64,000 bases of DNA from an uncultured Spirochaetales bacterium (GTDB taxonomy: Bacteria; Spirochaetota; Spirochaetia; JAFGDJ01), in contig CAYPIQ010000009.1 in assembly GCA_964410865.1 (NCBI GenBank), forward strand, positions 9,585 through 73,584. Reading direction: 5' to 3'. The notes beneath the pieces are model-generated. The model was not told where the DNA came from. It made no database searches and was given only the letters and a program-made list of their open reading frames with translations. The position numbers and the translations under genes are program-made. Of the stretch, positions 34,736 to 60,100 are shown one piece after another; the stretch's first letter is position 1, and the number at the start of each line of letters is the position of its first letter.

Positions 34736-35166
34736 AAAAATTACTCCTTCTCCAGGCAGTCTTCCTCCTCCTCGGCTGCAGCAGTCTCCCCGTCCGACGA
34801 ATCCTGGATGTGTATGTTGAAAAGGAGATGCGCTCTTCCATCCACCGCATGCTGTTTCACACCGGCAGCGTCAACATTGTTACCGGTGGAATGGGAAAGG
34901 TCCAGGCAGACGAGATAGCCGAACAGATATTTACCAGGAGAAACGCATCGATTCAAAACCCTCAAGGCCGGGCGGAAGTCCATATCACCCTGCATGAAAC
35001 CCCGTTACGAAAATCCTACGGTACCCTTAACTCCGTAACGGTGATCGCGGATATCGTCACCGACCATACTATCGCTTCGGTATTTTTCACCGAGGAAACA
35101 AAGAACAGTCTACAATCGGAGGCCTATATTTATGCCGTGTTCCGCCGCTGCTTTTCGACTCTCTAG
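34732..35166 (+). CDS. small lipoprotein of unknown function
   Basis: 144 aa; MKKLLLLQAVFLLLGCSS lipobox; translationally coupled between the TPR protein and the TolC-like gene. Confidence 0.5.
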   Translation: MKKLLLLQAVFLLLGCSSLPVRRILDVYVEKEMRSSIHRMLFHTGSVNIVTGGMGKVQADEIAEQIFTRRNASIQNPQGRAEVHITLHETPLRKSYGTLNSVTVIADIVTDHTIASVFFTEETKNSLQSEAYIYAVFRRCFSTL

Positions 35167-39251: not shown

Positions 39252-40621
39252 AGCAAGTACCTCTCCTGTTCCTTCTCACTCTTCTTCTCGCCGGCTGCGG
39301 GCGCATGGTGTGGTTCTTCGATTATACACCGCCGCGGGTTATGGAAGTCCGTGTTGACGAAGGAGTAACAGTGACATTTTCCGAAGAAATGTCCAGGCCG
39401 GTCACCGAGGAGGCTTTCCGGATGGTGGTCGACGACCTACCCGTGGAAGGTGATTTTACCTGGAAGGGTTCGTCAATGTACTTTACCCCCTACATTCCCT
39501 TCCAAGAAAACCCGGTATACCTGGTGACCCTGGACACCGGCGCGGAAGATCTCCACGGTAATTCTCTGGCTGAAGTCTACACTGCCTCTCCGGACCGATC
39601 TTCCGATACCGATCCCCCGCGGGTTACCGAGTATTCACCCGCCCGGGGAGAGCGTGTACATGATCCAAGGCCCCCGGTTACCATTTCCTTTTCGGAACCG
39701 GTTCTTCCCGAAAATTTCCTCCCGGCACTGCGGGTTTCGCCGGTTTTTACTTTTTCCATAGAATGGAACTCCGGCTGCGAATCTGTCATACTGCTCCCCT
39801 TAGAAGATCTGCGGAAGGATACCGAGTACAGGATCTCCGTCGGCAGTGAGTGCACCGATGAAGCCTCGAACGGCCTCAGGCCGGAATGCGCCTTTTACTT
39901 CAAAACCACCCGGGAAGAGACCCCGGAGCTCACCTCGGTGAAGGCCCTCGCGAGCGGCGTGGTGCTCGAGGATCTTGAAACCCGGGAGGTGAACAAGGGT
40001 ATCAGGCACGACGATGTCTTTGAATTAAACTTTTCACAGGCCCTCCGGGAGATGGACATCGATTCGATGGTAGCCCTCGGCCCGGATACGGCGGCGACCT
40101 TCAGGGCGGAGGGAGAATCCACGTTTATCCTCTCTCCGGATACCCCCCTCGAATACGGAAAGGAATACAGCCTGACCATACTCGATGAAACTTATAATCT
40201 CTATTGTAATAACGAAGAATCCATGCCCCCGGCGATTACCGATATCTATATATGCACCGACGGCGCCGGGGCCACCGAAATGCTCCTGCAGCATTCTATA
40301 ACGGAATCCTCGGGAACGGCGGACTTCTATGTCTTTTTGGCCTCTTATACCGGGGTCACTTTTTCAGGGGTCCTCGACAGTTTTGATATCGATATAACCA
40401 ATGCCTGTATCGATCTGGAAATCCTGACGGTTACTGAAAACCCGACACTTCCCGACGGGCTTCGGGAACCCGGGGATACGGAAACAGTGTACCGTTTCTC
40501 GGGGACAATACTGGACCCCCCTCCTCCCGGTATAGTCTCCTTCTCCTTTGATACCCGTTTGGTATCGAAGACCGGGGTCCGTCTACCCCGGGAAGCGGTT
40601 TTTCAAATATCCAACCTCTAG
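39248..40621 (+). CDS. lipoprotein with tandem Ig-like (SbsA/Big_5-type) domains
   Basis: 457 aa; lipobox LLLAGCG; two DxxPPRVxE...VTxxFSExM/V repeats characteristic of Big_5/SbsA Ig-like domains; ATGA overlap with the previous gene. Confidence 0.55.
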   Translation: MKQVPLLFLLTLLLAGCGRMVWFFDYTPPRVMEVRVDEGVTVTFSEEMSRPVTEEAFRMVVDDLPVEGDFTWKGSSMYFTPYIPFQENPVYLVTLDTGAEDLHGNSLAEVYTASPDRSSDTDPPRVTEYSPARGERVHDPRPPVTISFSEPVLPENFLPALRVSPVFTFSIEWNSGCESVILLPLEDLRKDTEYRISVGSECTDEASNGLRPECAFYFKTTREETPELTSVKALASGVVLEDLETREVNKGIRHDDVFELNFSQALREMDIDSMVALGPDTAATFRAEGESTFILSPDTPLEYGKEYSLTILDETYNLYCNNEESMPPAITDIYICTDGAGATEMLLQHSITESSGTADFYVFLASYTGVTFSGVLDSFDIDITNACIDLEILTVTENPTLPDGLREPGDTETVYRFSGTILDPPPPGIVSFSFDTRLVSKTGVRLPREAVFQISNL

Positions 40622-40633
40622 CCGGGGGGTTAC

Positions 40634-43552: not shown

Positions 43553-46440
43553 TTTCCGTTATACACACATCCGGCCGGTCCAGAACAACCGCGGCATTTC
43601 TCATGCTCAGCTGTATAATAATCTGGGTTGCCCGGGGGGTAGCCTTTGAATACTATCCACCGGGCACCGATCGATGGACCTGTATTATATTCGAGTATCC
43701 CGGTGCTTCGGCGGAACTACTCGAGGAGAGCATCATTCGACCTTTCGAAGAGTTCACCGCCGGAATCGCCGGCATCAGAGAACAACAGGTTATTATCCAT
43801 GACGGCCGGGCCCGTTATTATATCGGGCATCATCCTTCCGTTTCCCCCGTCGATGCCCTGGTACAGATACGCGGCTCTTTAAAACGTTTGGACCCCATAC
43901 TACCGGCCCCGGCCAGGCGGCCTGTTATAGAATCCGGAGGACAGTCGGAGAACCCGGTGCTCATTATCGGACTCACGCCGGCTCCAGGGATGAGTGTGGA
44001 AACCCTGGTGCAGGTATTCTCCGGGATAGAAGGCTGCAGCCGGGTTGAAACCTGCGGTCATGAGCACGAATCACTCTATATCGAAACCCGGGAAGATGCA
44101 TCCAATACAGCCTTACTGTCGATACAGGATATTCTCACCGCACTATCCGGACGCACAGCTTCGGGTTCTCTGACCCTGGAAAGCGGTGAGTTCCTGGTCT
44201 TGGATTCCCGTCCGTGGTCCATGGAGGATTATAGGAATATCACCCTGCGGCCGTATCTGCGCCTCGGCGAAACGGCCGATGTGGGTATGCGGACCGGAAA
44301 AGAGTATTCGGCTTCACTTATCAACGGACAAAAACAGGCTGTGGTTCTTCTATATGCCGAAGACGGAGCTGATATTATAAAATTATGTTGCGCCGGTGTG
44401 CGTGCGGCACGGTCCATCCCCGGCGCCGATCCTGTGGTCCTTTACGATCTTGGGCACAGGACCCGGGAGAATCTTACCGACATGCTCTTCAATACGGCGG
44501 CGGGGATAGTTATAGTGATACTTGTTACAATACTGCTTTTGAGAGACCTGAAAGCCGCGGCTCTAGCGTCTCTTACCATCCCCTTCAGCCTTTTTGCAAC
44601 CGCCGCCGTATTTCGTATCACCGGAACATCCCTCAATATGGTAACCATATCGGGCCTGGCGGTTGCCAACGGCCTGGTTATGGACGGCTCTTATATTGTG
44701 ATTACCCACCTCAGGACCGCGGGGATATCCGGCCTCCGGACGTGTGCCGCGGCCCTTTTGGCATCGGTATGTACAACAGCGGCGGTGTGCGTACCGGTAA
44801 GATTACTTACGCCGGAGGTGTATGGTCCTTTCGGTGGACTTTTTTCAGCGGTGTTTTGGACCCTTCTTGCCGGGTATGTCTATAGCCTGGTGTTCATCCC
44901 GGGCTTATACACTCCCCCCAGGAGCCTGCCATCCGCCACCGGGGGCCTCATGCGCGGCGGCGCCGGGGCTCTGTTTAACTTTGGTAAGCGTCGTCCGGTT
45001 CTTTCGACGGTATATGTGGCTTCCGGATGCCTTGTTGCCTGTTTCCTGTTGGGATATACGCCCTTTGAAAGAGTACCGTTAAAGGATACTCATGTTCTGA
45101 ACTTTCAGATCGAGTTTCCCGCCGGGACTCCCCTTGACCGGATGATCCGATCGGCCGGCCCCATGGAACATGCCCTTCAGGAAATTCCGGGGGTAATGAA
45201 CGTTTCCAGCCGATACAGGGATGAACAGATCAGGATATGCCTTTCCCTGGCTACCCGGACATCGGAAGAAACCGTTGCAGATAAGGTTCAACGATTACAC
45301 TACCTGATACCCGGGGGCGATATTCATATACCGAAACAAAGTGGCCGGAAAGACATGGAGGTGAGGGTATACGGACCGGATAACATACTGCTGCGGTCCA
45401 TTGCCGCCGACCTCGGGGGACATATCGAAGAAAAATTTCCCGGTTGTAAGGTTATCCTTCATTTCAAAGAACCCGTGGAGACCTGCCTTCTCTCTATCAA
45501 TACGGACAAGACGGCTTCCGCCGGGATCACTCCGCTTAAACTCTATCAGGAATTATACTGGAAATTTCTCGAACCCGTCGGCGGGAAGGCGTTTTTTTCC
45601 GGCGGGGAAAGGGATATTCATGTGACCCGTACAAAGCCGTCCGGCCCGGTAACACTACAGGAATATCTTCACACCACTTTGTCCGTACCAGGAGGACATT
45701 CCCCTGTCGGTGAGTTTGTCTCTGCCTGTTATGTTCCTTCCACCGGCACTATCTATCGGTACAATCGGCGGAGGGTACAGTCCCTTACACTGCGGTTTCC
45801 TGAACGTACCTCCGAAAAAAGGATCCGTTCTATAATAGAATACCTCGCCGCATACCCGGTCAGGGACGGTTATTCCATCCGGGTGGGTTCGCATTCTTTG
45901 GAAGATCAGGAGAGTCGAAAACGAATTACTATATCCGCCCTGGCAGGGACGGCCTCGGTGGTACTTATCATTTTTTTCTACTTTGGTTCCTTCAATAAAG
46001 CCCTGGCATGCCTGGTTATCGGGCTCGGAGCGCTTCCTCTGCCGGTGTTCTTACATATTATTGTTTTCCAAAAAGCGGTATCTACACCACTTGTGCTGGG
46101 CCTTCTGCTGGTATTCGGTGTTCAGGTTAATAACGGAATCATCCTTCTTAGACACCGTGAAGATACACCGGGTGATCTGTTCGTCCGTCTCTGCTCCAAG
46201 GCGGAGGCCATTCTGGGGGCGGCGATAACCAGTACGGCGGGGATACTACCACTGCTGGTGCTGGAATCGGAGACCCGCCGGTTCATGGCAGCCCTGCTGG
46301 GGACACTGGCAGCGGGAACTTTGTACGGAACCCTGATACTACCGGTATTGCTGGGGGCCTTTCAATCCAGGATTATGCAAAAGTACCGGGGAACGAAATC
46401 CTCCCCCTCGATCCCTTCTACCCTCATCAGGTTGAAATAA
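43549..46440 (+). CDS. RND efflux transporter permease (AcrB/HAE family), second of the tandem pair
   Basis: 964 aa from an ATG in an ATGA overlap with the upstream stop (the track ORF extends further upstream in-frame into the first RND gene); RND topology throughout. Confidence 0.85.
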   Translation: MISVIHTSGRSRTTAAFLMLSCIIIWVARGVAFEYYPPGTDRWTCIIFEYPGASAELLEESIIRPFEEFTAGIAGIREQQVIIHDGRARYYIGHHPSVSPVDALVQIRGSLKRLDPILPAPARRPVIESGGQSENPVLIIGLTPAPGMSVETLVQVFSGIEGCSRVETCGHEHESLYIETREDASNTALLSIQDILTALSGRTASGSLTLESGEFLVLDSRPWSMEDYRNITLRPYLRLGETADVGMRTGKEYSASLINGQKQAVVLLYAEDGADIIKLCCAGVRAARSIPGADPVVLYDLGHRTRENLTDMLFNTAAGIVIVILVTILLLRDLKAAALASLTIPFSLFATAAVFRITGTSLNMVTISGLAVANGLVMDGSYIVITHLRTAGISGLRTCAAALLASVCTTAAVCVPVRLLTPEVYGPFGGLFSAVFWTLLAGYVYSLVFIPGLYTPPRSLPSATGGLMRGGAGALFNFGKRRPVLSTVYVASGCLVACFLLGYTPFERVPLKDTHVLNFQIEFPAGTPLDRMIRSAGPMEHALQEIPGVMNVSSRYRDEQIRICLSLATRTSEETVADKVQRLHYLIPGGDIHIPKQSGRKDMEVRVYGPDNILLRSIAADLGGHIEEKFPGCKVILHFKEPVETCLLSINTDKTASAGITPLKLYQELYWKFLEPVGGKAFFSGGERDIHVTRTKPSGPVTLQEYLHTTLSVPGGHSPVGEFVSACYVPSTGTIYRYNRRRVQSLTLRFPERTSEKRIRSIIEYLAAYPVRDGYSIRVGSHSLEDQESRKRITISALAGTASVVLIIFFYFGSFNKALACLVIGLGALPLPVFLHIIVFQKAVSTPLVLGLLLVFGVQVNNGIILLRHREDTPGDLFVRLCSKAEAILGAAITSTAGILPLLVLESETRRFMAALLGTLAAGTLYGTLILPVLLGAFQSRIMQKYRGTKSSPSIPSTLIRLK

Positions 46441-46533: not shown

Positions 46534-48555
46534 ATGAAAAAAGATACCAATAAAACCATTCTACTGGTGGAAGATGAAACACTCATCGCCATGGCCGAAG
46601 CAGCTCACCTGGAAAAGACCGGCTACAACGTTATTACCGTATACACGGGAGAGGCCGCCATCGAAGCCGTCGAATCATCTCCCGAGATAGCATTGATCCT
46701 CATGGATATCGACCTGGGCAAGGATAGAATGGACGGGACCGTGACAGCCGAACACATCCTATCCGGTCATGATCTGCCGGTTGTTTTTCTTTCCAGCCAC
46801 ATGGAATCCGAGATCGTGGAGAAAACGGAAAAAATCACCTCCTACGGATATATTGTAAAGGATTCGGGCTATAAAGTCCTGGATGCCTCGATACGGATGG
46901 CTCTCAAGTTGTTCGAAGCCAATCAGGAAATCAAAGAGAGCAGGAAAGAGGCGGAAAAAGCCTACCTGGAAATGGAGCGGAGGGAAGAACGCCTGCAGCA
47001 TATGAACCGCGTTCTCCTGTCCATTCGAAACGTCAATCAGCTGATAACGAAAGAAAACGACCGGCACAGGCTTTTGCAACAAGCATGCCGACTGCTCATA
47101 GAGACCAGCGGGTATCACAGCGCCTCGGTTATTCTTATCGAAGACAATGTGCCCCTGGAACCCTTTTATTATACCGGCCCCGGACAGAATTTTGCCCCCA
47201 TGGCCGAAGAATTACGGGCAGGTCATATTCCTCCTTGTATTCTCGAAGCCCTTGAGACCGGCAAAATCGTTCTCCTTAACAGTGCGCACCATGCATGTCC
47301 CGGTTGCCCCCTTCTTACGCATGACGATTATCATGTATTCAGTGATTCACGAGCCGACGGAATGGTTACACGCCTCGAACACGGCGGATTTGTATACGGG
47401 TGGATAATCGTATCCGTCCCCAGGGGCTTCCTGATGGATGAAGAAGAACGCCAATTGTTTCGGGAAATCTCCGGAGACATCGCACTTGCACTGTACAAGA
47501 ACAGGATAGAGGAAGAAAAGGAACGCTTTAACACCATGCTGACCGAGAGCCGGGAAGCCCTCAGAAAAAATGAAGACCGTTTGCAGAAAATACTAACGGC
47601 TGCACAGGACGGCACCTGGGACTGGGACCTCAACACCGGTACGGTATTTTTTGACCCCCGATATTATGAGATGGCGGGGTACACCTTTAACGAGTTCCCG
47701 CCGGAGTATGAAGAATTCCGAAAACGAGTCCATCCTGAAGATCTCCCCCTGGTCGAACGCACTATTAACCTCCACCTCGAAGGGGCAATAGATCACTTCA
47801 GCGTGGAGTTCAGATTTTTACAATGTAACGGAGAATGGCTATGGATTCTGGGAAGGGGAAAGATCGTAGAAAAAAATGAAGACGGCACCCCTGCACGCTT
47901 TGTAGGCACCCATACCGATATCTCGCGGCTTAAGCAGGTGGAAAGCCGGTTGGAAGAGGCCCTCCGCGAAAAGGACACACTGCTGCGGGAGCTCAAACAC
48001 CGGGTTAAAAATAATTTCAACATGATGACAAGCATGATACATCTTAAAATGGACACCCTGGAGGACAAGGCGACCATCGACTGTCTGAAAGAAGTGGAAA
48101 ACAGAATTAATGCGTTTTCCGAACTCTATACCCAGCTCTACCGGGATGAAAATCAGAAAGAAATTCAACTCGAGACCTACCTGGAAAACTTGATTACATC
48201 CATGAACACTACCGCCGGTGATGTAAGAATTCGTTTTGATTTAGCGGAGACGACCATTCCCATGAAAAAGGCGGCTACGCTGGGGCTTATCGTCACAGAG
48301 CTGGTAACCAACGCTCTCAAGCACTCCTTCCCCGATAGTCGGCATGGCACCATAATGATCAAGCACTCCGAAAAAGGAAGCACCTCCGTACTCGTAGTGG
48401 AAAACGACGGTATACCTTTCCCGCAGGATTTCAGCATCGATTCATCCCCGGGGCTCGGTCTGAAGATGGTCCGGGGTATGGTGAAAGACCTTAACGGAAC
48501 CCTGGCTATCCATGGCAACAAAAAGTCCGGAGTATACATAACCTTTAAACCCTGA
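46534..48555 (+). CDS. hybrid signalling protein: REC - Cys-rich GAF - PAS - HisKA_2 - HATPase_c histidine kinase
   Basis: 673 aa; N-terminal receiver (LLVEDE...ILMDIDLG); GAF-like segment with HHACPGCPLL; PAS with the DGTWDWDL signature; H-box LKHRVKNNFNMMTSM typical of HisKA_2/HWE kinases; ATP-binding domain. Confidence 0.8.
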   Translation: MKKDTNKTILLVEDETLIAMAEAAHLEKTGYNVITVYTGEAAIEAVESSPEIALILMDIDLGKDRMDGTVTAEHILSGHDLPVVFLSSHMESEIVEKTEKITSYGYIVKDSGYKVLDASIRMALKLFEANQEIKESRKEAEKAYLEMERREERLQHMNRVLLSIRNVNQLITKENDRHRLLQQACRLLIETSGYHSASVILIEDNVPLEPFYYTGPGQNFAPMAEELRAGHIPPCILEALETGKIVLLNSAHHACPGCPLLTHDDYHVFSDSRADGMVTRLEHGGFVYGWIIVSVPRGFLMDEEERQLFREISGDIALALYKNRIEEEKERFNTMLTESREALRKNEDRLQKILTAAQDGTWDWDLNTGTVFFDPRYYEMAGYTFNEFPPEYEEFRKRVHPEDLPLVERTINLHLEGAIDHFSVEFRFLQCNGEWLWILGRGKIVEKNEDGTPARFVGTHTDISRLKQVESRLEEALREKDTLLRELKHRVKNNFNMMTSMIHLKMDTLEDKATIDCLKEVENRINAFSELYTQLYRDENQKEIQLETYLENLITSMNTTAGDVRIRFDLAETTIPMKKAATLGLIVTELVTNALKHSFPDSRHGTIMIKHSEKGSTSVLVVENDGIPFPQDFSIDSSPGLGLKMVRGMVKDLNGTLAIHGNKKSGVYITFKP

Positions 48556-49161: not shown

Positions 49162-51045
49162 ATGTCTGAGAGAATAAAACCCGATCATACCCGGAAATCA
49201 ACAGTAAAAAGCGACATACTACTTGTTGGTCAACCTAATGTAGGTAAAAGCGTTCTCTTTTCACACATTACCGGTGTTAGAACCATCGCATCCAATTATC
49301 CGGGCACCACCGTATCCTATGCTTCGGGAAGAACAAAGTATAAAAACCGGGAACTCTATGTGGTTGATGCGCCCGGAACATATTCCCTCGAACCCTTGGA
49401 CGAAGCCGGAAGAGTCACCGTACAACTCCTTGATCATGCACAGCGGGTAATCAATGTGGTCGACGCAACGCATCTAGAACGCCATCTGCCCCTTACCATG
49501 GAATTGCAGGCACAAACCGGAGATTCTCTTGTTATTGCACTTAACATGTGCGACGAGGCACGGCATAGAGGAATTTCCATCGATACGGAGCTGCTTTCGC
49601 AGAGACTCGGGGCACCGGTGGTGCCGATTGTCGCCCGCACGGGCGAGGGCATCAAAACCTTGATACAAACGGTCATGGAGCGCCCGCCTCGTACCTTTTC
49701 TTCTGCCGATGGAGAGGATAAGCCCGGCCGGCATTCTCATATTAAATATCATGCTCATCCGCCGGGCTCCGACCATTCGCATATAGAACGGCACAGGGTG
49801 TGGGAGAGAATCGGTGATATCGTGGATGAAACCCAGACTCTTCACCACCATCATCACACCTTCGGTGAACGGCTGGAAGACCTGAGCGTCCATCCTGTTT
49901 GGGGAAGTATCATAGCCGTGGTGGTACTCGCCGTATCCTTTAGTCTTATCAGGCTGATAGGAGAATTCCTTATCGGAGGAGGCCTGGGTATTCTCGGCGA
50001 ACCCTGGGTGGAAATTCCCTTCGGTACGGAACTACTCTTCGAGAGGGGGGTAAAACCTCTTCTTATGCGCTTGTCGGATTTTCTTGGTTCCGGCGGCTTT
50101 CTCCATGGGCTACTCATAGGCAGCCTTATAGAGGGCGAGATAGACTTTATGCAGTCCTTCGGCATCCTCACATCCGGTATCTTTGTACCCCTGGGGGCAG
50201 TCTTGCCCTACATTATCAGCTTTTACCTGGTTCTTTCTCTTCTCGAAGATTCCGGTTACCTCCCCCGACTGGCGGTATTCCTGGATAACCTGATGCACAG
50301 ACTGGGACTTCACGGGTATGCCATTATCCCTACCCTCCTCGGGCTCGGTTGCAATGTCCCCGGCATCATGGCTACCCGTATACTCGAAAGCAGGCGGCAG
50401 CGCTTTATAACGGCGACACTCATTTCCACGGCAGTTCCGTGTGCGGCCCTGCAGGCAATGATAATCGGCATTGTAGGCGATCGAGGACTTGGAGCCTTAC
50501 TCTGGGTATTCGGTTCCCTGGTGGTTGTATGGCTTTTGGTGGGGATTATTCTCAGGTTCACATCGAAAGAATTCCGCCCGGAACTGCTGATAGAGATTCC
50601 CCCCTACCGGCTGCCTTCCTTTAAGGCCATACTGTCAAAAATGTGGATGCGTACAGGCGGGTTCCTGCGGGAAGCCCTGCCGGTTATCATGGGAGCGGTG
50701 CTGGTGGTAAACATTCTCTACCAGCTCGACGTGTTCCAATACCTCGCCCGGGCGGCAAGACCTCTTGTTACATATCTGTGGGGAATGCCTGAAGAATCGA
50801 TTGTTCCGCTGTTGATAGGTATACTGCGTAAAGATGTCGCCGTGGGTATGTTTATTCCACTGGCCTTGACCACGAAGCAATTGATTATCGGCAGTGTTGT
50901 CCTGGCCTTGTTTTTCCCCTGCCTTGCAACATTCGTCGTACTCTTCAGGGAGCTCGGGCTCAAGGACGGCCTCAAGTCTATCGGCCTGATGCTTATCGTG
51001 GTAACCGCAACCGGATCAATATTAAATCTTATTCTCCAGGGCTGA
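49162..51045 (+). CDS. feoB: ferrous iron transporter B (G-protein domain plus membrane permease)
   Basis: 627 aa; N-terminal GTPase motifs (LVGQPNVGKSVLF, DAPG, NMCD), then a polytopic permease domain with FeoB gate motifs. Confidence 0.85.
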   Translation: MSERIKPDHTRKSTVKSDILLVGQPNVGKSVLFSHITGVRTIASNYPGTTVSYASGRTKYKNRELYVVDAPGTYSLEPLDEAGRVTVQLLDHAQRVINVVDATHLERHLPLTMELQAQTGDSLVIALNMCDEARHRGISIDTELLSQRLGAPVVPIVARTGEGIKTLIQTVMERPPRTFSSADGEDKPGRHSHIKYHAHPPGSDHSHIERHRVWERIGDIVDETQTLHHHHHTFGERLEDLSVHPVWGSIIAVVVLAVSFSLIRLIGEFLIGGGLGILGEPWVEIPFGTELLFERGVKPLLMRLSDFLGSGGFLHGLLIGSLIEGEIDFMQSFGILTSGIFVPLGAVLPYIISFYLVLSLLEDSGYLPRLAVFLDNLMHRLGLHGYAIIPTLLGLGCNVPGIMATRILESRRQRFITATLISTAVPCAALQAMIIGIVGDRGLGALLWVFGSLVVVWLLVGIILRFTSKEFRPELLIEIPPYRLPSFKAILSKMWMRTGGFLREALPVIMGAVLVVNILYQLDVFQYLARAARPLVTYLWGMPEESIVPLLIGILRKDVAVGMFIPLALTTKQLIIGSVVLALFFPCLATFVVLFRELGLKDGLKSIGLMLIVVTATGSILNLILQG

Positions 51046-52576: not shown

Positions 52577-54232
52577 TTACTTCGAGTACTTCGAAAAGAT
52601 GAACCAGTGCTTTGTATCCAGCGGATTCCCGTCCACATCGAGGATAATCTTCGGTACATCCTTTTTCTGCGTAGCCAGGCTGAAAACAACGAGGAATACA
52701 CAGGATACGATAAAGCCCCATACCGAAGAGATATAGAGGGAATCCCACATGGCCCACTCCCAATAGACCCCGGGAATTTGCGGGGTCAAACCGGTATTGG
52801 CCTCGATGGTTACCGGCAGATGGATAAAGTAGGCTATTATCCAGGCGGCGAATCCACCGATGAACGCTGCTATAGCCCCGATATTATTCGCCTTTTTCCA
52901 GAAATAGGCGGCAAAGTAGGGCGCCATGAGTGAAACAAGCAGAATAGACCAGGCTATAACCATCAGGTTATAGATTACCTGGAACCAGAGAGCCAGCACC
53001 AGGGATATGGCCGTAATAATCGGCACGATGATCCTCGTTACCTTCAGGGTCTGCTCCTCCGTTACTTCAGGCTTGATAATTTTATAGGCATTGTAACCCA
53101 GCACGGAAGCTCCGGCCAGAATGGCACTGTCCGCCGATGACATGAGGGCGGCAACAATGGCACTGACAAAGATAACGGTTATAGGAACAGGCATGTATTC
53201 AATTGCCATGTAGATCAGGATCTTGTTCAAGGCGTCCTCGAAGCCGAGATCCGGATTCAGTTTAAAATAGACCATGCCGGCGATAATCGGCATGATACCG
53301 ATGGTAGCATACCCGATACCCGCCAGGGTGGACGACCAGGCACTGACCTTCTCACTCTTGGAAGAAAGGAGTCTCTGCTGGGTGTCCTGGGCAACGATGG
53401 AACCGAAGCCCAGGGAAATCCACGCGGCGATCATGTAAAACCAACCGTAATAACCGGTATACCATAGATACCCCTCGTTTCCGATCTCCGGGTCGGCGTT
53501 CTTTGCCGTGGTATACCCGAAGGACCACTGGTTCAGCTCCATCCAGTTGCCCGAAGGATCGTTGTTGAACACCTCGCTCCAACCACCGCCCAGGGGTACT
53601 ACAATGGCAAGCATTATTGCCAGCCCGACGACGATAATAATCATCTGAAATACATCCGTCAGGGTTACCGCCCACATACCCCCGAGGTATGTGTACACAA
53701 CAACTACAACCGTCGAAATTACTATTCCGATCCACAGTGGTAATCCCGTAAACACATTGATAATTACACCGAAGGCCACAAGCTGTGCGCCAAGCCACCC
53801 CATTTCGCTAATCGCAATAGTAATAATCGACATTATACCCATGGAGTTGCTGTACCGGAGCTGGAAGACGTCCGATACCGTAATATACCGGCCCCTCCTC
53901 ATCAGCCGGCCGAAGACAACCCCAATCAAAATAAGACACACCGCACCGCCCCAGGGATCGAATATAACGCCCTGGTTACCGAAGATGTAAGCGTTACCCG
54001 CACCTCCCATGCACGGACCGGCCCCAAACCACGTGGCGAACATGGTTCCCGTTGCAAGAAACAAACCGAGTCTCCTGCCGGCGACGACATAATCGGCGGT
54101 TCCTTTTACACGCCTCGATGCCCACCAACCGATGAACACCATCACCACCATGTAGAGCAGGAGAAAACCGAGAACCCATCCACCGTACTGATACGTACCT
54201 TCCATGAACGCATCCTCCTGTTTTGTAACCAA
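52577..54232 (-). CDS. sodium:solute symporter (SSS family; PutP/PanF-like)
   Basis: 551 aa; about 13 TM segments; N-terminal VVAGRRLGLFLATGTMFATWFGAG, typical of SSS transporters. Confidence 0.8.
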   Translation of the reverse strand: MVTKQEDAFMEGTYQYGGWVLGFLLLYMVVMVFIGWWASRRVKGTADYVVAGRRLGLFLATGTMFATWFGAGPCMGGAGNAYIFGNQGVIFDPWGGAVCLILIGVVFGRLMRRGRYITVSDVFQLRYSNSMGIMSIITIAISEMGWLGAQLVAFGVIINVFTGLPLWIGIVISTVVVVVYTYLGGMWAVTLTDVFQMIIIVVGLAIMLAIVVPLGGGWSEVFNNDPSGNWMELNQWSFGYTTAKNADPEIGNEGYLWYTGYYGWFYMIAAWISLGFGSIVAQDTQQRLLSSKSEKVSAWSSTLAGIGYATIGIMPIIAGMVYFKLNPDLGFEDALNKILIYMAIEYMPVPITVIFVSAIVAALMSSADSAILAGASVLGYNAYKIIKPEVTEEQTLKVTRIIVPIITAISLVLALWFQVIYNLMVIAWSILLVSLMAPYFAAYFWKKANNIGAIAAFIGGFAAWIIAYFIHLPVTIEANTGLTPQIPGVYWEWAMWDSLYISSVWGFIVSCVFLVVFSLATQKKDVPKIILDVDGNPLDTKHWFIFSKYSK

Positions 54233-54481
54233 GATAGATAATTATATACCCGGTTTTTCCATTCCGGCAATAAAAATCAATTGAGTTCAATATGTCGTTC
54301 CGTTTCGGTACAACTGTATGGTTATTCTCGGATAAGACACAAATACTGGCAATCTTCAAGAAATAGTGCAAAAAGTATCGGAAAAAATTTCCCATCTTTC
54401 GGAGGATGTAAAATATTACCCCTCCGCCCTCCTTTGAAGGCCTGTTTATGTCGTTTTTCCGTTACTTTTCCCTCGTATTCT

Positions 54482-54497
54482 TGGCACGCTTATTGCA
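54482..54497 (+). promoter_or_regulatory. sigma-54 (RpoN) promoter, TTGGCACG-N4-TTGCA
   Basis: Perfect -24/-12 element TGGCAC-gctta-TTGCA at 54482-54497 with the canonical GG-N10-GC spacing, about 35 nt upstream of the ATG at 54533; a sigma-54-dependent activator is encoded 1.7 kb downstream. Confidence 0.55.
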
Positions 54498-54532
54498 ATA
54501 TATAGGATACAAACAATTTCGGAGGTTAACGA

Positions 54533-55015
54533 ATGAAAAAGATAAGTATTGTACTGATCATTATGATCCTTGCCGCCTCGGCCGTATTCGCCGGCGGCAA
54601 CAGCGAAAAGAGGCAGGCGGCAACCGGAAGCGGTCAAGGCCAGGGTCCTGTACTGCAGGCGGCCGAATCCGGGACAACCGAAGAGGTAACCCTCAGCGGA
54701 ACCCTGGTTATGAAAGACGGCTTTCTGGTCCTCTCCGTGGATGATGCCCTGTACTCCCTCGGCGGCCGGGGCACCCGGCTTTACATCGACGAATTCGAAG
54801 CCGGGGATGTTATCGAGGTGCAAGGAATCCTGGTAACCGACTGCCGGGACGACTGCGACCGTGACCTGGACGGTCATATTTTTATGGAAAAGGTTACCAG
54901 GAACGGTGAAGAATTCACCTTTGAGCCCCCCGCCGGCGGCAGCCGGGGTAACGGCCGGGGACAGAGGAAAGGAAACTCTCCCCGGGGGACCGGATATCGC
55001 TGGTCGGAAGCCTGA
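54533..55015 (+). CDS. small secreted protein of unknown function (sigma-54-driven; ZraP/Spy-like genomic position but no sequence similarity)
   Basis: 160 aa; signal peptide MKKISIVLIIMILAASAVFA; Gly/Arg-rich C-terminal tail; Cys/Asp cluster TDCRDDCDRDLDGH; GGAGG RBS. Confidence 0.6.
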   Translation: MKKISIVLIIMILAASAVFAGGNSEKRQAATGSGQGQGPVLQAAESGTTEEVTLSGTLVMKDGFLVLSVDDALYSLGGRGTRLYIDEFEAGDVIEVQGILVTDCRDDCDRDLDGHIFMEKVTRNGEEFTFEPPAGGSRGNGRGQRKGNSPRGTGYRWSEA

Positions 55016-55027
55016 AAAAATGTAAAA

Positions 55028-55055
55028 GAGAGCCGGGACACCCGGCTCTTTTTTG
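55028..55055 (+). terminator. Rho-independent terminator
   Basis: GAGCCGGG-acac-CCCGGCTC hairpin followed by TTTTTTG, 13 nt after the stop of the small secreted protein. Confidence 0.6.
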
Positions 55056-55077
55056 TTATATAATATGACTGAAAATT

Positions 55078-56289
55078 ATGATGAAAAAAAGAACCATAAA
55101 AATAATATTTTTCACCTTCACTTTTCTTCTCCTGCTGCTCGTACTCTCGCTCTTCTTTCTCGCCCTCAGGCAGAGTGTCCGATACAACCGTGTCCTGGCG
55201 GAATACCAGGCATCAAGGCTTTCGGTTCGTCTTACCGAATTGTACCTCTCCGGAGAAGAACTTACGATGGCCGATCTGGAGGAAAACACCCTGGGATTCG
55301 GTGTATACACCGGAACGGGACAGCCTGTCCTGCGTTTCGGAGATGTCCCTGCACAAATCGAAGATCTGCACCCGGGTTATGCCGGCGAAACAGTACTCCG
55401 GGATAAAAATCATCTGACCGTCATCAGGTCCTCGGGGCGCGGGCGGATGCGGCAGGACCACATACCGGGACAAGCCGGCCGGGAACGGATAATCACCATC
55501 CTTGTCGTTGATGACCGGAACACCCGCAATGCGGCATCTTTTTTATTCGTACTGACCCTTCTCCTGTTCCTTGCCTTCCTCGCCCTCAGCGGGGGTATTG
55601 TATTCCTCTATCGCCGGATAGACCGTCTGAAGGCCGAAGAGGGTAAAAACCTCCAGTTGATTCGACTCGGCCAGGCTGCCAGAGTCCTGACCCATGAAAT
55701 AAAAAACCCCCTGGGAGCTATACGGATCCAGGAACAAATACTGCGGAAAAAGCTTCCGGAGGAATTCAAACCATCCCTGTCGGTTATAGGGGAAGAAACC
55801 GCCAGGATCGCCAGGTTGACCGACAGGGTCGGCGAGTTTCTCAAACATCCGGAGGGGACGCCCTCCGAGGTCGATTTGGTTTCGACCCTACAGGAACTGA
55901 TCCACACCATGCCCGGTACTATTACCATCAAACTGAATACAGGAGAATCGGCGAAGGTCCGGATCGATCCCGACAATCTCCGGTCGGTATTCGAGAATAT
56001 CCTCACGAACGCCGTCCTCAGCGGGGGGCCCGACTCTCCCGTTACAATAACCGTCGATCATACCAAGGGTGGATATACCGTATCGGTGGCCGACAACGGA
56101 CCGGGAATAGATCCTGCCTCGGCTGACAGGATTTTTGATATCTTCTATACTACCAGGACCAGCGGATCGGGAATAGGCCTGGCCGTGGCTAAAGCTTTTA
56201 TAGAGGCTGCCGGCGGCTCGATAACAGCGCGGAACCGCCCGGAAGGAGGAGCAGTGTTTACGGTAATTCTCCCGGAGTATAGAGATTGA
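55078..56289 (+). CDS. two-component sensor histidine kinase (NtrB/ZraS/AtoS-like)
   Basis: 403 aa; two TM segments flanking a periplasmic sensor domain; H-box LTHEIKNPLGAI; HATPase_c with GSGIGLAV. Confidence 0.8.
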   Translation: MMKKRTIKIIFFTFTFLLLLLVLSLFFLALRQSVRYNRVLAEYQASRLSVRLTELYLSGEELTMADLEENTLGFGVYTGTGQPVLRFGDVPAQIEDLHPGYAGETVLRDKNHLTVIRSSGRGRMRQDHIPGQAGRERIITILVVDDRNTRNAASFLFVLTLLLFLAFLALSGGIVFLYRRIDRLKAEEGKNLQLIRLGQAARVLTHEIKNPLGAIRIQEQILRKKLPEEFKPSLSVIGEETARIARLTDRVGEFLKHPEGTPSEVDLVSTLQELIHTMPGTITIKLNTGESAKVRIDPDNLRSVFENILTNAVLSGGPDSPVTITVDHTKGGYTVSVADNGPGIDPASADRIFDIFYTTRTSGSGIGLAVAKAFIEAAGGSITARNRPEGGAVFTVILPEYRD

Positions 56290-57623
56290 TAAAGATCCTT
56301 ATCGCCGATGACGAACTCCACATACGAACATCTCTTTCCGAATATCTGGCAACCGAGGATATGGATGTGGTTACGGTGGAAAACGGACACGCTGCAAGAA
56401 AGGCACTCCAGGAAACAACCTTTGATTGCCTGGTGGCGGATCTGAAAATGCCCGGCATGGACGGCCTCGAACTGCTCGAGTGGATTACCTCGGAAGGTCC
56501 CTCACTGCCGGTAATCATGATGTCTGCCTTCGGTGATATCGAAGACGCAGTGGCGGCTATGAAGCAGGGCGCTTATGATTACATCACCAAGCCCTTTAAC
56601 CCGGAAGAGCTTGTCCTGCGAATACGGAAATCCGTCGAAGAACACACCCTTAAACTCGTCCACCGGCCCGGCCTGCCCGGCGGTATGAAGACCGAAAGTC
56701 GTCACGCATCCATGCAGAAGGTGTACAGGCTGGTCGAACGAGCCGCGCCCACGGATACAACGGTACTTATTACCGGGGAAAGCGGAACGGGAAAAGAGGT
56801 TATCGCCGGTCTGATTCACTCCATATCACGGCGCGCCTCCGGTCCGTTTATCCCGGTAAACATCGCGGGAATCCCCGACACCCTGATGGAGAGTGAATTA
56901 TTCGGGTACGAGAAAGGGGCGTTCACCGGGGCTGAAAAAAGAAAAGAAGGACTCTTCGAAGCCGCGGGCTCGGGCACCATTTTTCTCGACGAAATCGGAG
57001 AAGCGCCGTCTCACCTTCAGGTAAAACTCCTGAGGGTATTGCAGGAGAAGAAAATACAACGCCTGGGGGCTACCGGTATCGTCCCGGTGGATGTAAGGAT
57101 TATTGCCGCCACAAACCGGGACCTGGAAGCCATGGTCGAGAGGGGAGAATTCCGCGAGGACCTTTTTTACCGGCTTAATGTCATCCGTATAGAATTACCC
57201 CCCTTGCGGGAAAGAGCGGAAGACCTGCCGGGTATCTCGGCGGACCTGCTGAAAAAAATATCCCTCCGGATAGGCAAACCGGTATCAGGTATAACCGAAT
57301 CCGCCATGCGGAAACTCTCGGGATATACATTCCCCGGGAATATTCGGGAACTCGAGAACCTGCTGGAACGGTCCGTTATCCTTAGTTCCACCGAGATAAT
57401 CGACGCGGAGGATATAGATCTTCCGGTACCGCAGGAAACGGAGGAACGTAAGATACCCCGGGGTACCTTGATGGAGGTCGAGAAACAGGCGATCATGGAA
57501 GCACTGTACAGGCACGAAGGACATCGTGACCGGACTGCAGCGGAACTCGGCATTACCCGGCGGACACTTCTGAACAAGATAAAAACATACGGTATAACCG
57601 AGTTCAACAGAAAAAATACCTGA
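56286..57623 (+). CDS. sigma-54-dependent response regulator (NtrC/ZraR/AtoC family; REC-AAA+-Fis HTH)
   Basis: 445 aa; receiver (ILIADDE...LVADLKMPGMDG); AAA+ sigma-54 interaction domain with GESGTGKE and the GAFTGA loop (ELFGYEKGAFTGA); C-terminal Fis-type HTH; ATGA-coupled to the kinase gene. Confidence 0.85.
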   Translation: MIKILIADDELHIRTSLSEYLATEDMDVVTVENGHAARKALQETTFDCLVADLKMPGMDGLELLEWITSEGPSLPVIMMSAFGDIEDAVAAMKQGAYDYITKPFNPEELVLRIRKSVEEHTLKLVHRPGLPGGMKTESRHASMQKVYRLVERAAPTDTTVLITGESGTGKEVIAGLIHSISRRASGPFIPVNIAGIPDTLMESELFGYEKGAFTGAEKRKEGLFEAAGSGTIFLDEIGEAPSHLQVKLLRVLQEKKIQRLGATGIVPVDVRIIAATNRDLEAMVERGEFREDLFYRLNVIRIELPPLRERAEDLPGISADLLKKISLRIGKPVSGITESAMRKLSGYTFPGNIRELENLLERSVILSSTEIIDAEDIDLPVPQETEERKIPRGTLMEVEKQAIMEALYRHEGHRDRTAAELGITRRTLLNKIKTYGITEFNRKNT

Positions 57624-57729: not shown

Positions 57730-57757
57730 TTGACAAACCGGAGCTTCGGCCTAGACT
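57730..57757 (+). promoter_or_regulatory. candidate sigma-70 promoter TTGACA-N16-TAGACT upstream of ptsP
   Basis: Consensus -35 TTGACA at 57730-57735, 16-nt spacer, TAGACT at 57752-57757, 40 nt upstream of the ptsP start. Confidence 0.3.
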
Positions 57758-57799: not shown

Positions 57800-60100
57800 A
57801 TGAACGGAAAGGCTGCGGAAACCGATACCGACAGGTTAAAGATGCTCTGCGAATTCAGCGAGTTGAGCTGGCTTTTCAACAACTCGGAGGATATCCGCTC
57901 ATTTCTTGATAAAATCGTCCAGATGATATCCAAACACATGCATACCGGTGCGGCCACGGTGTTCCTCTGGAACGATAACACCGAAAGGCTTATCCTGGAA
58001 GCAACCATAGGCCTGGACAAGAGGGCCATCGGAAAGGTAAAACTGAAACCCGGAGAAGGACTCACCGGACGTGCTCTGGAAGACAAACGGCCTATCCTGG
58101 TGGAAAATGCCGATAAACACCCCCAGTTCAAAAGAATTCCCCGCATTCATGAAGAGAAATACAAAAACTTTGTAGCCGTGCCCATACTCAGGGGCATCAC
58201 GAAAATCGGGGTTATCTCGATACAACGGGAAGAAGATCGCCCCTTCAACAATGAAGACGTTCAGGCCCTTACGGTCATTGCCTCCCAGCTTGCCAATATC
58301 CTTGAAAATGCCCGTATGCTCCTTATGTCGGATACCGGCAGAAAAACCACCCCTTATAAAACCCTGCAAATGGAAGCCGGTGAAAGGATCGACGGGAAAA
58401 CGGCCTGTTCGGGGATTACCTACGGGGAAATATTCATACTCAACCGGGAACGCTCCCTTTCAATGCTTTCCGGCGAGCCGGTTTCTTCAAAAGAAACCCT
58501 GGATGAGTTCAAGCAGGCGGTGGAACAAACTCAGAAACAACTCAGTGAGCTGCAGAGCAGAACGGAGGAGCTCCTCGACGATACCGCCTCTCTCATTTTC
58601 ACTTCGCACCTCCTGATCCTCAAGGACCTGGATTTTATAGGTGAAATCGTCAAAAGAATAGAAGACGGTGAAAAACCGGTAAAGGCCGTACTGCGGGTAG
58701 CCGATGCATATAAAAACCTCTTCTCCTCTAACCCGAGTCCCTTTGTACGGGAAAAGGTCCACGACGTGGAGGATGTCATCCTCCGGCTCATCGGAAACCT
58801 GGTCGAAGAAACCGATGCTTCCATCGACATGCACGACAGAATTATTATCGCTAGAGAACTGTACCCCTCCGATATTCTCCACGCTTCGTCGGAAGGAGCG
58901 GCGGGTATCGTTCTCGTAAGCGGCGGTATAACCTCGCATATTTCGATCCTCTCCCAATCTCTCCGGCTGCCCATGGTAATCGTCGACCGACCGGAGCTCA
59001 TGAGCCTGGCTCCCCATCAGCAGGTTCTTCTAGACGGCTTTGCCGGCGCGATTTACATCAATCCCCCCGGAGACCTGGTAAAAAAGATATATGACGAACG
59101 GTCCGAACCCGTCACAGGCGCGGAAAAGACGACAATCCGCAAAACAACGAAAACCCGGGACGGCGTCAAAGTTTCCATCATGGCAAACGTCAATCTCATC
59201 AGCGATGTCGAACAGGCAAACCTCGTACACGCCGAGGGTGTGGGCCTTTATCGTACGGAGTTCCCATTCCTGATCAGAAACAATTTTCCGTCGGAAGAAG
59301 AACAGTATACGATATATAAAAAGGTCTGCGATTCCATGCCCCAAAAACGGATTATTTTCAGAACCCTTGATATCGGGGGCGACAAGATCCTCTCTTACTA
59401 CCAGGATTACCAGGAGCGGAATCCCTTCCTGGGTTTACGGTCGATCCGTTTCTCGCTCAAACACCAGGATACCTTCCGTGAGCAGATACGGGCAATACTG
59501 CGTGCCCCCGAAGGCGGCAGCGTGTGGATCATGTTCCCGATGATATCCTCGGTGGATGAATTCCTCGCGGCAAGGGATATTGTTTTTTCCTGCAAGCATG
59601 AATTACGGAAAGAAAAATACAAGGTTCCCCGGGTTGTAAAGGTCGGAATGATGGTGGAAGTACCCTCGATTACCGAGATCATGCCGGACCTGTGCGAATA
59701 CTCGGATTTTTTCTCTATCGGAACAAACGACTTCATCCAGTATATCCTTGCCGTAGACAGGTCGAATGAGAAGGTAGCGGATTATTACCTTTCCCATCAC
59801 CCGGCAGTCATGAGATCTTTAAAACGCATCGTGGACATAGCCCGGACCCATGGGAGGGAAATTGCCGTATGCGGGGAAATGGCCAGGCAGGAACTGTTTA
59901 TTCCCTTTCTGCTCGGTATCGGAATACGGAACTTCAGCATGGGCGCAACGCATATACAGGGCATCAGGCAACTTATATCAATGATCTCTCTGGAAGAAGC
60001 AACGAAGACCGCTGAGGAAGTTCTGAAAGCACAAGATTGTTCGACATCCGAAAAAATTCTTACCACCACACTGAAAAGAATCAAGAACGGGAAGGAATAA
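57800..60100 (+). CDS. ptsP: phosphoenolpyruvate-protein phosphotransferase, nitrogen-PTS type (Enzyme I-Ntr) with N-terminal GAF domain
   Basis: 766 aa; N-terminal GAF (TVFLWNDNTERLILEATIGL...GEGLTGRAL); EI phospho-histidine, PEP-utilising (GVGLYRTEFPF) and TIM-barrel PEP-binding domains. Confidence 0.8.
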   Translation: MNGKAAETDTDRLKMLCEFSELSWLFNNSEDIRSFLDKIVQMISKHMHTGAATVFLWNDNTERLILEATIGLDKRAIGKVKLKPGEGLTGRALEDKRPILVENADKHPQFKRIPRIHEEKYKNFVAVPILRGITKIGVISIQREEDRPFNNEDVQALTVIASQLANILENARMLLMSDTGRKTTPYKTLQMEAGERIDGKTACSGITYGEIFILNRERSLSMLSGEPVSSKETLDEFKQAVEQTQKQLSELQSRTEELLDDTASLIFTSHLLILKDLDFIGEIVKRIEDGEKPVKAVLRVADAYKNLFSSNPSPFVREKVHDVEDVILRLIGNLVEETDASIDMHDRIIIARELYPSDILHASSEGAAGIVLVSGGITSHISILSQSLRLPMVIVDRPELMSLAPHQQVLLDGFAGAIYINPPGDLVKKIYDERSEPVTGAEKTTIRKTTKTRDGVKVSIMANVNLISDVEQANLVHAEGVGLYRTEFPFLIRNNFPSEEEQYTIYKKVCDSMPQKRIIFRTLDIGGDKILSYYQDYQERNPFLGLRSIRFSLKHQDTFREQIRAILRAPEGGSVWIMFPMISSVDEFLAARDIVFSCKHELRKEKYKVPRVVKVGMMVEVPSITEIMPDLCEYSDFFSIGTNDFIQYILAVDRSNEKVADYYLSHHPAVMRSLKRIVDIARTHGREIAVCGEMARQELFIPFLLGIGIRNFSMGATHIQGIRQLISMISLEEATKTAEEVLKAQDCSTSEKILTTTLKRIKNGKE

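Follow-up and report, generated by a model that had tools for sequence, protein, structure and literature searches.

Closest described systems and their relation to the locus

In the CpxP-CpxAR and Spy-BaeSR/CpxAR modules, an envelope kinase induces a small periplasmic protein, a possible chaperone and feedback inhibitor. In zraP-zraSR of E. coli and Salmonella, a sigma-54-dependent zinc and envelope-stress system, a membrane kinase and an NtrC-type sigma-54 activator control the adjacent gene of a small periplasmic protein (PMC4987338). In ygiW-qseBC of the Pasteurellaceae (Aggregatibacter, Haemophilus), the gene of a periplasmic OB-fold protein is located directly upstream of a stem-loop and the two-component genes; the response regulator activates the promoter, and the small-protein transcript exceeds the two-component transcript because the stem-loop separates them (PMC5053249). 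The locus described here is located at 54482-57623 of a 64,000-nt stretch of DNA from an uncultured Spirochaetales bacterium (GenBank assembly GCA_964410865.1, contig CAYPIQ010000009.1), which was analyzed at its full length and is called the window below. It comprises a sigma-54 promoter, the gene of a small secreted protein, an intrinsic terminator, and the genes of a sensor histidine kinase and an NtrC-type sigma-54 activator. As judged from the conservation of these parts, the kinase and activator most likely switch on the one neighbouring small-protein gene. The feature is real and well supported, being a variant of known envelope-signalling modules with an effector from an unannotated family.

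The initial annotation had called the organisation zraPSR-like, which holds for the conserved regulatory architecture: as in zraP-zraSR, a kinase and an NtrC-type sigma-54 activator are encoded beside a small secreted-protein gene. It does not extend to the parts, since the two regulators are not ZraS/ZraR equivalogs, the genes are co-directional with a terminator between them, and there is a single sigma-54 promoter, whereas zraP and zraSR are divergent and each has a sigma-54 promoter. The small protein is a predicted all-beta OB fold, unlike the helical ZraP/Spy/CpxP type. The module is similar to zraP-zraSR in regulatory class, yet differs from it in equivalog scores, effector fold, and the lack of divergent promoters. 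ZraS and ZraR were among the best NCBIfam matches, both below threshold (kinase to ZraS, 102.6 bits vs. cut-off 479; activator to ZraR, 368 bits vs. cut-off 760). The AtoS and AtoC models outscored those of ZraS and ZraR, also below cut-off (activator to AtoC, 442 bits vs. 714), and the kinase was not an equivalog of ZraS, AtoS, or NtrB. Many spirochaete homologues of the kinase are named "HydH" in KEGG-style source names. The CpxP and Spy modules differ from the locus in their sigma-70 promoters, OmpR-type regulators, and helical LTXXQ proteins, and the small protein resembles CpxP/Spy in neither sequence nor fold.

The closest architectural analogue is ygiW-attenuator-qseBC, which is nearer than ZraP because the small protein is a predicted OB fold. 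In the window and in two homologous loci (L026 and L028), an OB-fold gene of the same predicted fold class is followed by a stem-loop and two-component genes. QseB is OmpR-type, sigma-70-dependent, and uses direct repeats, whereas the window has an NtrC-type activator, a -24/-12 promoter, and a candidate dyad site. Unlike YgiW, the spirochaete family has an acidic Cys/His loop, for which the aligned YgiW has no counterpart, and a long Gly/Arg tail. A two-component system with a periplasmic OB-fold protein as output is also described for V. cholerae: according to PMC5636140, the main, perhaps only, output of VC1638/VC1639 is the BOF protein VCA0732, a VisP/YgiW homologue induced by polymyxin B envelope stress. 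VCA0732 is a true BOF member, whereas the small protein of the window is a possible one, and the VCA0732 gene is unlinked to VC1638/VC1639, on the other chromosome. The regulator is OmpR-type, and the passages of the article consulted contain no mention of sigma-54 dependence of the VC1639 system. The literature searches turned up no system that pairs an OB-fold effector with sigma-54 and an NtrC-type activator. The module agrees with the broader picture of sigma-54 as a regulator of the cell exterior (PMC3162934).

Sigma-54 promoter and ribosome-binding site

The small gene is located to the right of a divergent intergenic region that contains its promoter and Shine-Dalgarno sequence.

52577-54232, minus strand: sodium:solute symporter gene, left of the intergenic region
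54233-54532: divergent intergenic region between the minus-strand symporter gene and the plus-strand small-protein open reading frame (ORF)
54482-54497, plus strand: sigma-54 (-24/-12) promoter TGGCACGCTTATTGCA (TGGCAC-N5-TTGCA), exact consensus match
54521-54525, plus strand: Shine-Dalgarno sequence GGAGG, 7 nt before the ATG, invariant in five loci
54533-55015, plus strand: small secreted protein ORF, 160 aa, from the ORF list and its translation

The -24/-12 element, which had been annotated 35 nt upstream of the ORF, was found at that place. The GG (54483-54484) and GC (54494-54495) are separated by exactly 10 nt (GG-N10-GC), the end of TTGCA at 54497 is 35 nt from the ATG at 54533, and the position of the element predicts a transcription start near 54506-54509. 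The pattern TGGCACN5TTGCW had one exact match in the window vs. 0.01 expected (dinucleotide shuffles; 1/100 shuffles with any match). With one mismatch allowed, the match was still single, with ~1 expected.

Motif scans covered the window and the fetched homologous loci (438 kb in total). A sigma-54 element precedes the small gene in L001 (TGGCACGCCTATTGCT) and L002 (TGGCACGCTTTTTGCA) at the same distance from the ATG as in the window, and is likewise found directly 5' of the small secreted gene in L026 (TGGCATGCTTTATGCT) and L028 (TGGCATGCCTCTTGCT); the distance to the ATG is similar in all four. In the alignment of the five loci, TGGCA(C/T)GC-N3-(T/A)TGC was invariant and the GG-N10-GC spacing exact. 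A relaxed regular expression for sigma-54 elements gave six matches in the 438 kb, five of them 5' of these small genes. The consensus scan also gave a sigma-70-like site overlapping the element (TTGGCA-16-TAGGAT, 9/12, 54481-54508). The -24/-12 element is taken as functional because it is invariant in five loci and near-unique in 438 kb, and the overlapping sigma-70 match is not kept. The Rfam scan of the window gave no known RNA elements, and therefore no riboswitch or leader explanation applies.

Candidate enhancer upstream of the promoter

Two inverted repeats were found between the symporter gene and the promoter.

54378-54394, no strand: candidate enhancer (upstream activating sequence), 17-bp dyad TCGGAA-AAAAT-TTCCCA, one mismatch from TGGGAA-N5-TTCCCA
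54401-54428, no strand: second imperfect palindrome GGAGGATGTAAAATATTACCCCTCC, 17-nt arms, 71% complementarity (repeat search)

Classical NtrC-family sites have six-base arms and a five-base A/T-rich spacer. A search for enhancer sites of the activator at 54300-54480 had been suggested, and the dyad was found within this region. It was exposed as a shared block when the upstream regions of the window (GGAAAAAATTTCCCA) and L001 (GGGAAAAATATTCCCA) were compared; framed as 17-mers, the two blocks are each one mismatch from TGGGAA-N5-TTCCCA. In both the window and L001 (1589-1605), the dyad is centred exactly 97 bp 5' of the -24 GG. L028 has a perfect dyad (TGGGAAAAATGTTCCCA, 1088-1104) 162 bp upstream of the -24 GG. 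In L026, a dyad with at most one mismatch (TGGGAAATATTTTCACA, 5209-5225) is located 169 bp upstream of the -24 GG, and a further copy with two mismatches is 29 bp from the first. The dyad with at most one mismatch was therefore present in all four loci that retain upstream DNA (window, L001, L026, L028).

Five dyads with at most one mismatch were found in the 438 kb, four of them upstream of these promoters. The fifth (window 1035-1051, TGGGAATCTCGATCCCA) falls within a 246-aa ORF (439-1179); its spacer is GC-rich, no -24/-12 element is near it, and it is probably a chance match. With up to two mismatches, the window had five matches vs. 4.6 expected, i.e., chance level. From its conservation and position, the TGGGAA-N5-TTCCCA dyad is inferred to be a strong candidate enhancer and the best available predicted site of the activator. 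The palindrome at 54401-54428 does not recur in this form in L001; it may serve as a weaker additional site of the activator or may be bound by an architectural protein.

Small secreted protein

The signal peptide, Cys/Asp cluster, and Gly/Arg tail that had been annotated for the 160-aa protein could all be read from the ORF. The N-terminus consists of MKK, a hydrophobic stretch, and VFA/GG (signal peptide, aa 1-20), and is followed by a linker (aa 21-47), an OB-fold core (aa 48-130) rich in beta-strand-forming residues, and a disordered Gly/Arg tail (aa 131-160) that ends in GYRWSEA. The protein had no Pfam or NCBIfam match at E<=0.1, and therefore nothing links it to ZraP, Spy, or CpxP. Homology to these was ruled out by Pfam and the predicted fold, in agreement with the initial annotation, which had considered the protein neither ZraP- nor Spy-like.

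A search of 5.8 billion clustered proteins gave only two close homologues (59-64% identity, those of L001 and L002). A 19-kb JGI contig encodes P0222, a small protein that shares at least 90% identity with that of the window. Of 1.84 billion representatives searched with the profile, 89 were related at E<=1e-3, 24 of them at E<=1e-10, and none has a Pfam domain or an informative name. The small protein of L026 matched the family profile with 98.2% probability (E = 3e-14), and that of L028 aligned likewise. The metagenome scan with a three-sequence alignment had a single match, L025, which was rejected as an unrelated ABC substrate-binding protein sharing only the signal-peptide end FAGGNSEK.

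Clusters at 50% identity were used as family representatives (~90), and the motif tallies cover 103 members. The signal peptide ends in F/Y-A-x-G in 95/103, and the core can be summarised as VTL.GTL..DG..VL...YSLSAPG....G..V.V.G.L...DC...DGHIFV..A..DGE.Y.F. Tails are predicted to be disordered; their median length is 58 aa, and 38% of their residues are Gly or Arg. A G-R-W/F motif is present within the last 14 residues in 29/103 members, including those of the window, L001, L026, and L028; L002 is the only sigma-54-linked member without it. Among the C-termini listed, several end instead in GGRGxI, GGGIL, or RGLI. The two recurrent C-terminal motifs (G-R-W/F and GGRGxI-type) could be docking or sorting signals.

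AlphaFold2 predicted a five-stranded beta core with a pLDDT (predicted local distance difference test) score of 85-94, and two models gave an OB fold. Foldseek against PDB returned OB folds exclusively (Asp/Lys-tRNA synthetase N-domains, SSB, Stn1/Ten1, RMI), none at E<1e-3, with YgiW (1nnx) at rank 21 (E = 0.016). On these models, the small protein is a secreted single-domain OB fold with a disordered Gly/Arg tail. The family profile aligned to strands beta1-beta4 of E. coli YgiW, and the hhalign probability was 92% with signal peptides, but only 52.8% for the mature cores. The match of the profile to PDB 1nnx was weak (E = 0.3-0.6), and the Pfam BOF model (PF04076) matched one of 40 family members (E = 0.027).

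The Cys/Asp/His cluster, for which metal binding had been suggested, is located in an acidic loop.

54839-54877, plus strand: loop DCRDDCDRDLDGH, aa 103-115, between OB strands 4 and 5

The loop contains a DxDxDG-type motif (D109-R-D111-L-D113-G114), the pattern of DxDxDG calcium-binding loops, followed by His115. G56 and H115 were invariant in alignment A3 (40 sequences), and C108, D113, G114, and H115 in alignment A6 (20 sequences), whereas C104 varies across the family. The full DxDxDG motif was found in 11/103 members and the commoner C..DGH in 50/103, and the Cys/Asp loop is absent altogether from the sigma-54-linked proteins of L026 and L028. Because of this partial conservation and absence, the suggestion of metal binding did not stand as a conserved property of the module: it is weakly supported and plausible for the sub-clade of the window.

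Terminator, sensor kinase, and sigma-54 activator

The small gene is followed by a terminator and the two-component genes.

55023-55058, plus strand: intrinsic terminator (A-tract, GC-rich hairpin, U-run), from folding; looks bidirectional
55035-55064, plus strand: sigma-70-like promoter GGGACA-18-TATAAT, 10/12 (consensus scan), overlapping the terminator
55078-56289, plus strand: sensor histidine kinase, 403 aa, HisKA + HATPase_c (Pfam)
56286-57623, plus strand: NtrC-type sigma-54 activator, 445 aa, Response_reg + Sigma54_activat + AAA_lid_14 + HTH_8 (Pfam)

The annotated terminator was borne out by the fold of the hairpin (55023-55055) and U-run at -22.6 kcal/mol (z = -6.1), as 0/200 shuffles folded as well. 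A hairpin was found 3' of the small gene in all four other loci (L001, L002, L026, L028), and in each, inspection by eye showed a TATACT or TATAAT box 3' of it. The sigma-70-like promoter at 55035-55064 probably gives basal expression of the kinase-activator operon, to judge from its sequence. The operon has no second sigma-54 promoter, the -24/-12 element being single in the window.

The kinase and the activator, which had been annotated as NtrC-type with GAFTGA, were recovered both by Pfam domains and in the sequence. By hydropathy, the kinase has a first transmembrane (TM) segment at ~aa 4-36, a periplasmic part at ~aa 37-148 (~113 aa), and a second TM segment at ~aa 149-181; the H-box HEIKNPL, with the His at residue 206, and HATPase_c follow. 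Kinase orthologues were found at 91%, 60%, and 59% identity, and a spirochaete family at ~35%. The kinase scan of a genome collection without the genome of the window or close relatives gave only distant kinases (22-32% identity) from unrelated phyla.

The Pfam E-values of the activator were 9e-34 for Response_reg, 5.5e-70 for Sigma54_activat, and 1.7e-12 for HTH_8. The translation contains the receiver Asp (D52), GAFTGA in EKGAFTGAEK, and a Fis-type helix-turn-helix (HTH). The TTG start of the activator overlaps the TGA stop of the kinase by 4 nt (TTGA), an overlap by which the activator is predicted to be translationally coupled to the kinase.

The activator HTH (ELGITRRTLLNKIK) was tried as a marker of linkage to the small gene and rejected, as the comparison does not discriminate: this Fis-type HTH is near-identical in loci with and without the small gene. 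The seven kinases compared share one sensor-domain family with the motif GFGVY...G...R.G.AP. They include kinases without a small-gene neighbour, and because these have the same periplasmic domain, no co-variation argument is possible.

Homologous loci and gene order

Conservation of the trio in other genomes had also been considered in the initial annotation. It was found in L026 and L028, which come from different samples and have the promoter, small gene, terminator, kinase, and activator in the order of the window; the two loci were reached through their kinases, which are ~35% identical to that of the window. It was not found in L001 and L002, where the gene after the small gene encodes a NapH-like Fer4_5 membrane ferredoxin, followed in L001 by a 165-aa protein (p165). 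L023 contains Fer4_5, p165, DUF2202, the 60%-identical kinase orthologue, and the activator; identity to the L001 proteins is 88% for Fer4_5 and 82% for p165. L024, from a Spirochaetales metagenome-assembled genome, contains DUF2202, the kinase, and the activator.

In this sister lineage, the order most likely is promoter, small gene, hairpin, Fer4_5, p165, DUF2202, kinase, and activator, as pieced together from contig sequences. The extra genes (L001 2329-3656, L023 3-2030, L024 1-447) encode a NapH/NosR-like Fer4_5 ferredoxin, a family-less 165-aa membrane-anchored protein, and a secreted ferritin-like DUF2202 protein adjoining the kinase gene. They may be co-transcribed with the two-component genes and constitute a redox or iron module of the periplasm. 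None of the three is present in the window. Because the compact trio occurs in the distant outgroup loci L026 and L028, it is probably the ancestral form, to which the sister lineage would have added the three genes by insertion.

The genes of distant family members (L015-L021, 33-36% identity) are followed by those of two small membrane proteins and an MMPL transporter. Their upstream regions share a block (L015 6860-6960, L018 6870-6960, L020 6860-6960) in which a TATATT box accompanies two copies of CTTAAC spaced ~21 bp apart. The conserved block suggests control by a different, possibly OmpR-type, regulator.

L022 (JGI 3300033145, Ga0366840_1005517) encodes the kinase 91% identical to that of the window, and the contig extends only 131 nt 5' of this gene. 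Its region 42-114 matched Rfam RF00029 (group II intron domain V/VI) with 33.5 bits (gathering score 40; E = 5e-5). Region 1-140 corresponds to window ~55050-55078, and the similarity resumes just past the position of the terminator. These matches suggest that a terminator-targeting group II intron has been inserted behind the small gene in L022. In the kinase gene of L022, an extra A in the A-run after ATGATG leads to an early stop, and the gene call begins at a later start codon (340 aa).

In L001, the small gene is flanked by an SDR gene, and an SDR gene with 66% identity to it is located near the small gene in the window. The neighbouring SDR of L026 is only 26% identical; SDR synteny was therefore rejected and the adjacency treated as coincidence.

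Proposed circuit

The locus is probably a self-contained two-component sigma-54 circuit, whose output at the window locus is the small secreted OB-fold protein. The anatomy of the sequence, its conservation, and the synteny were read directly; the activator at work, its binding place, the signal, and the function of the protein are proposed as follows. The 113-aa periplasmic domain of the two-TM kinase would detect a signal from the periplasm or envelope, and the kinase would phosphorylate D52 of the activator. The phosphorylated activator, as the conservation suggests, would bind the dyad at 54378-54394, ~120 bp upstream of the start site, and with ATP and the GAFTGA loop would open the sigma-54 holoenzyme complex at 54482-54497. 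The 160-aa precursor would be made in quantity, with transcription ending at the strong terminator. The kinase-activator operon, under its own sigma-70-like promoter, would be expressed only weakly, and some read-through may add mild positive feedback. The protein would be exported, its signal peptide cut after VFA, and act in the periplasm through the OB face and the positively charged, flexible Gly/Arg tail. Speculatively, it may bind an envelope polymer or cation and may feed back on the kinase like ZraP and CpxP.

The DUF2202 and NapH-like insertion in the sister lineage hints that the envelope signal could be related to redox or iron. Ferritin-like proteins of the DUF2202 type are present in gene clusters for iron storage, the ferrosome clusters (bioRxiv 10.1101/2020.01.10.902569). 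A feoB gene is located 3.5 kb upstream of the locus in the window, and the redox or iron signal remains only a hint.

More tentatively, the small proteins might be a new spirochaete family of periplasmic stress proteins, which in one clade would be the dedicated single-gene output of a sigma-54 circuit. The acidic Cys/His loop on the OB face would then bind a cation or envelope polymer, and the flexible basic tail with its G-R-W motif would dock on the periplasmic domain of the kinase for feedback, as a ZraP/CpxP analogue on a different fold.

To our knowledge, almost nothing is known about sigma-54 regulons in free-living spirochaetes. The locus is a compact, testable circuit with one promoter, one predicted enhancer, one target gene, and one sensor pair, and brings to light a family of secreted proteins with an OB fold and a disordered Gly/Arg tail that has no Pfam or NCBIfam model. 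If the circuit were confirmed, the design in which an envelope sensor induces a small periplasmic protein would have been rebuilt with an OB-fold effector under sigma-54, and a simple reporter could then help to find the signal. In practical terms the impact is modest, as the organism is uncultured and the kind of system already known, and the logic and parts are not fundamentally surprising.

Points against the proposed circuit and alternative explanations

Several observations weigh against the proposed circuit. The strong terminator argues against substantial autoregulation by read-through. The dyad was originally derived from the window and L001, and only L026 and L028 confirm it independently. 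The gene order of the sister lineage is a composite of overlapping contigs, no single one of which joins the small gene and the kinase. Homologous kinase-activator pairs of the same periplasmic-domain family are found in L027, behind a MacB-type exporter, and in L029/L030, behind a glycosyltransferase, with no small gene or -24/-12 element in the flanks. Neither a -24/-12 element nor a neighbouring two-component system accompanies the genes of the distant members L015-L021, which restricts sigma-54 control to one clade of the family. Finally, rpoN is not encoded within the window.

The alternative that survives best, although unlikely, is that the sigma-54 promoter is genuine and is activated by an enhancer-binding protein encoded elsewhere, while the adjacent pair controls other targets and its adjacency is incidental. 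The pairs of L027 and L029/L030 that stand without the small gene would fit this, as would L001 and L002, where the NapH-like ferredoxin and not the kinase adjoins the small gene, and the terminator and separate sigma-70-like promoter, which uncouple the two transcription units. However, the adjacency is found in three independent, divergent lineages (window, L026, L028) and was reconstructed in the sister lineage, and the same dyad accompanies orthologous activators even where the kinases are ~35% identical. Moreover, the targets of enhancer-binding proteins are typically adjacent operons (PMC3162934, PMC4641369).

Slightly less probable still is that the small protein is part of a periplasmic redox or iron system with Fer4_5, p165, and DUF2202, and that the window locus is a reduced remnant whose function has perhaps been lost. 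The sister lineage, where the small gene, the three extra genes, the kinase, and the activator form one cluster and DUF2202 adjoins the kinase, points this way, together with the absence of the extra genes from the window and the occurrence of DUF2202 proteins in ferrosome clusters. In the outgroups L026 and L028, however, the trio is compact, so that the three genes look inserted, and in L001 and L002 the hairpin separates the small gene from Fer4_5. The ORF in the window is intact, and the promoter, Shine-Dalgarno sequence, signal peptide, and core are all conserved.

That the -24/-12 match is fortuitous and the small gene is read from the overlapping sigma-70 site at 54481-54508 is very improbable and was rejected on conservation grounds: its -35-like hexamer (TTGGCA or CTGGCA) is conserved, but the putative -10 shifts register in L001 (1-nt indel) and is absent in L026, whereas the GG-N10-GC spacing and TGGCA(C/T)GC...TGC are invariant in five loci, an exact sigma-54 consensus is expected only 0.01 times per window, and a GAFTGA activator is encoded alongside.

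Other features of the window

Directly after the activator gene, a GAF + PEP-utilising enzyme (PtsP/EI-Ntr-like, 766 aa) is encoded at 57800-60100 on the plus strand, with its own sigma-70-like promoter TTGACA-16-TAGACT at 57730-57757. Its adjacency to the activator is kept in the 91%-identical strain L022 and not in L024. In the FeoB ferrous-iron transporter (49162-51045, plus strand), the G-domain and the membrane domain are separated by a His-rich insertion (HSHIKYHAHPPGSDHSHIERH ... HHHHH). A giant ORF of 2963 aa is located at 25204-34095 on the minus strand. An RND (resistance-nodulation-division) efflux cluster at 35132-46440 on the plus strand comprises an outer-membrane factor, an HlyD-type adaptor, two Big_5 Ig-like proteins, and two AcrB-family ORFs with overlapping coordinates (40634-43552 and 43279-46440), and is followed by a hybrid REC-GAF-PAS-HisKA_2 kinase at 46534-48555.

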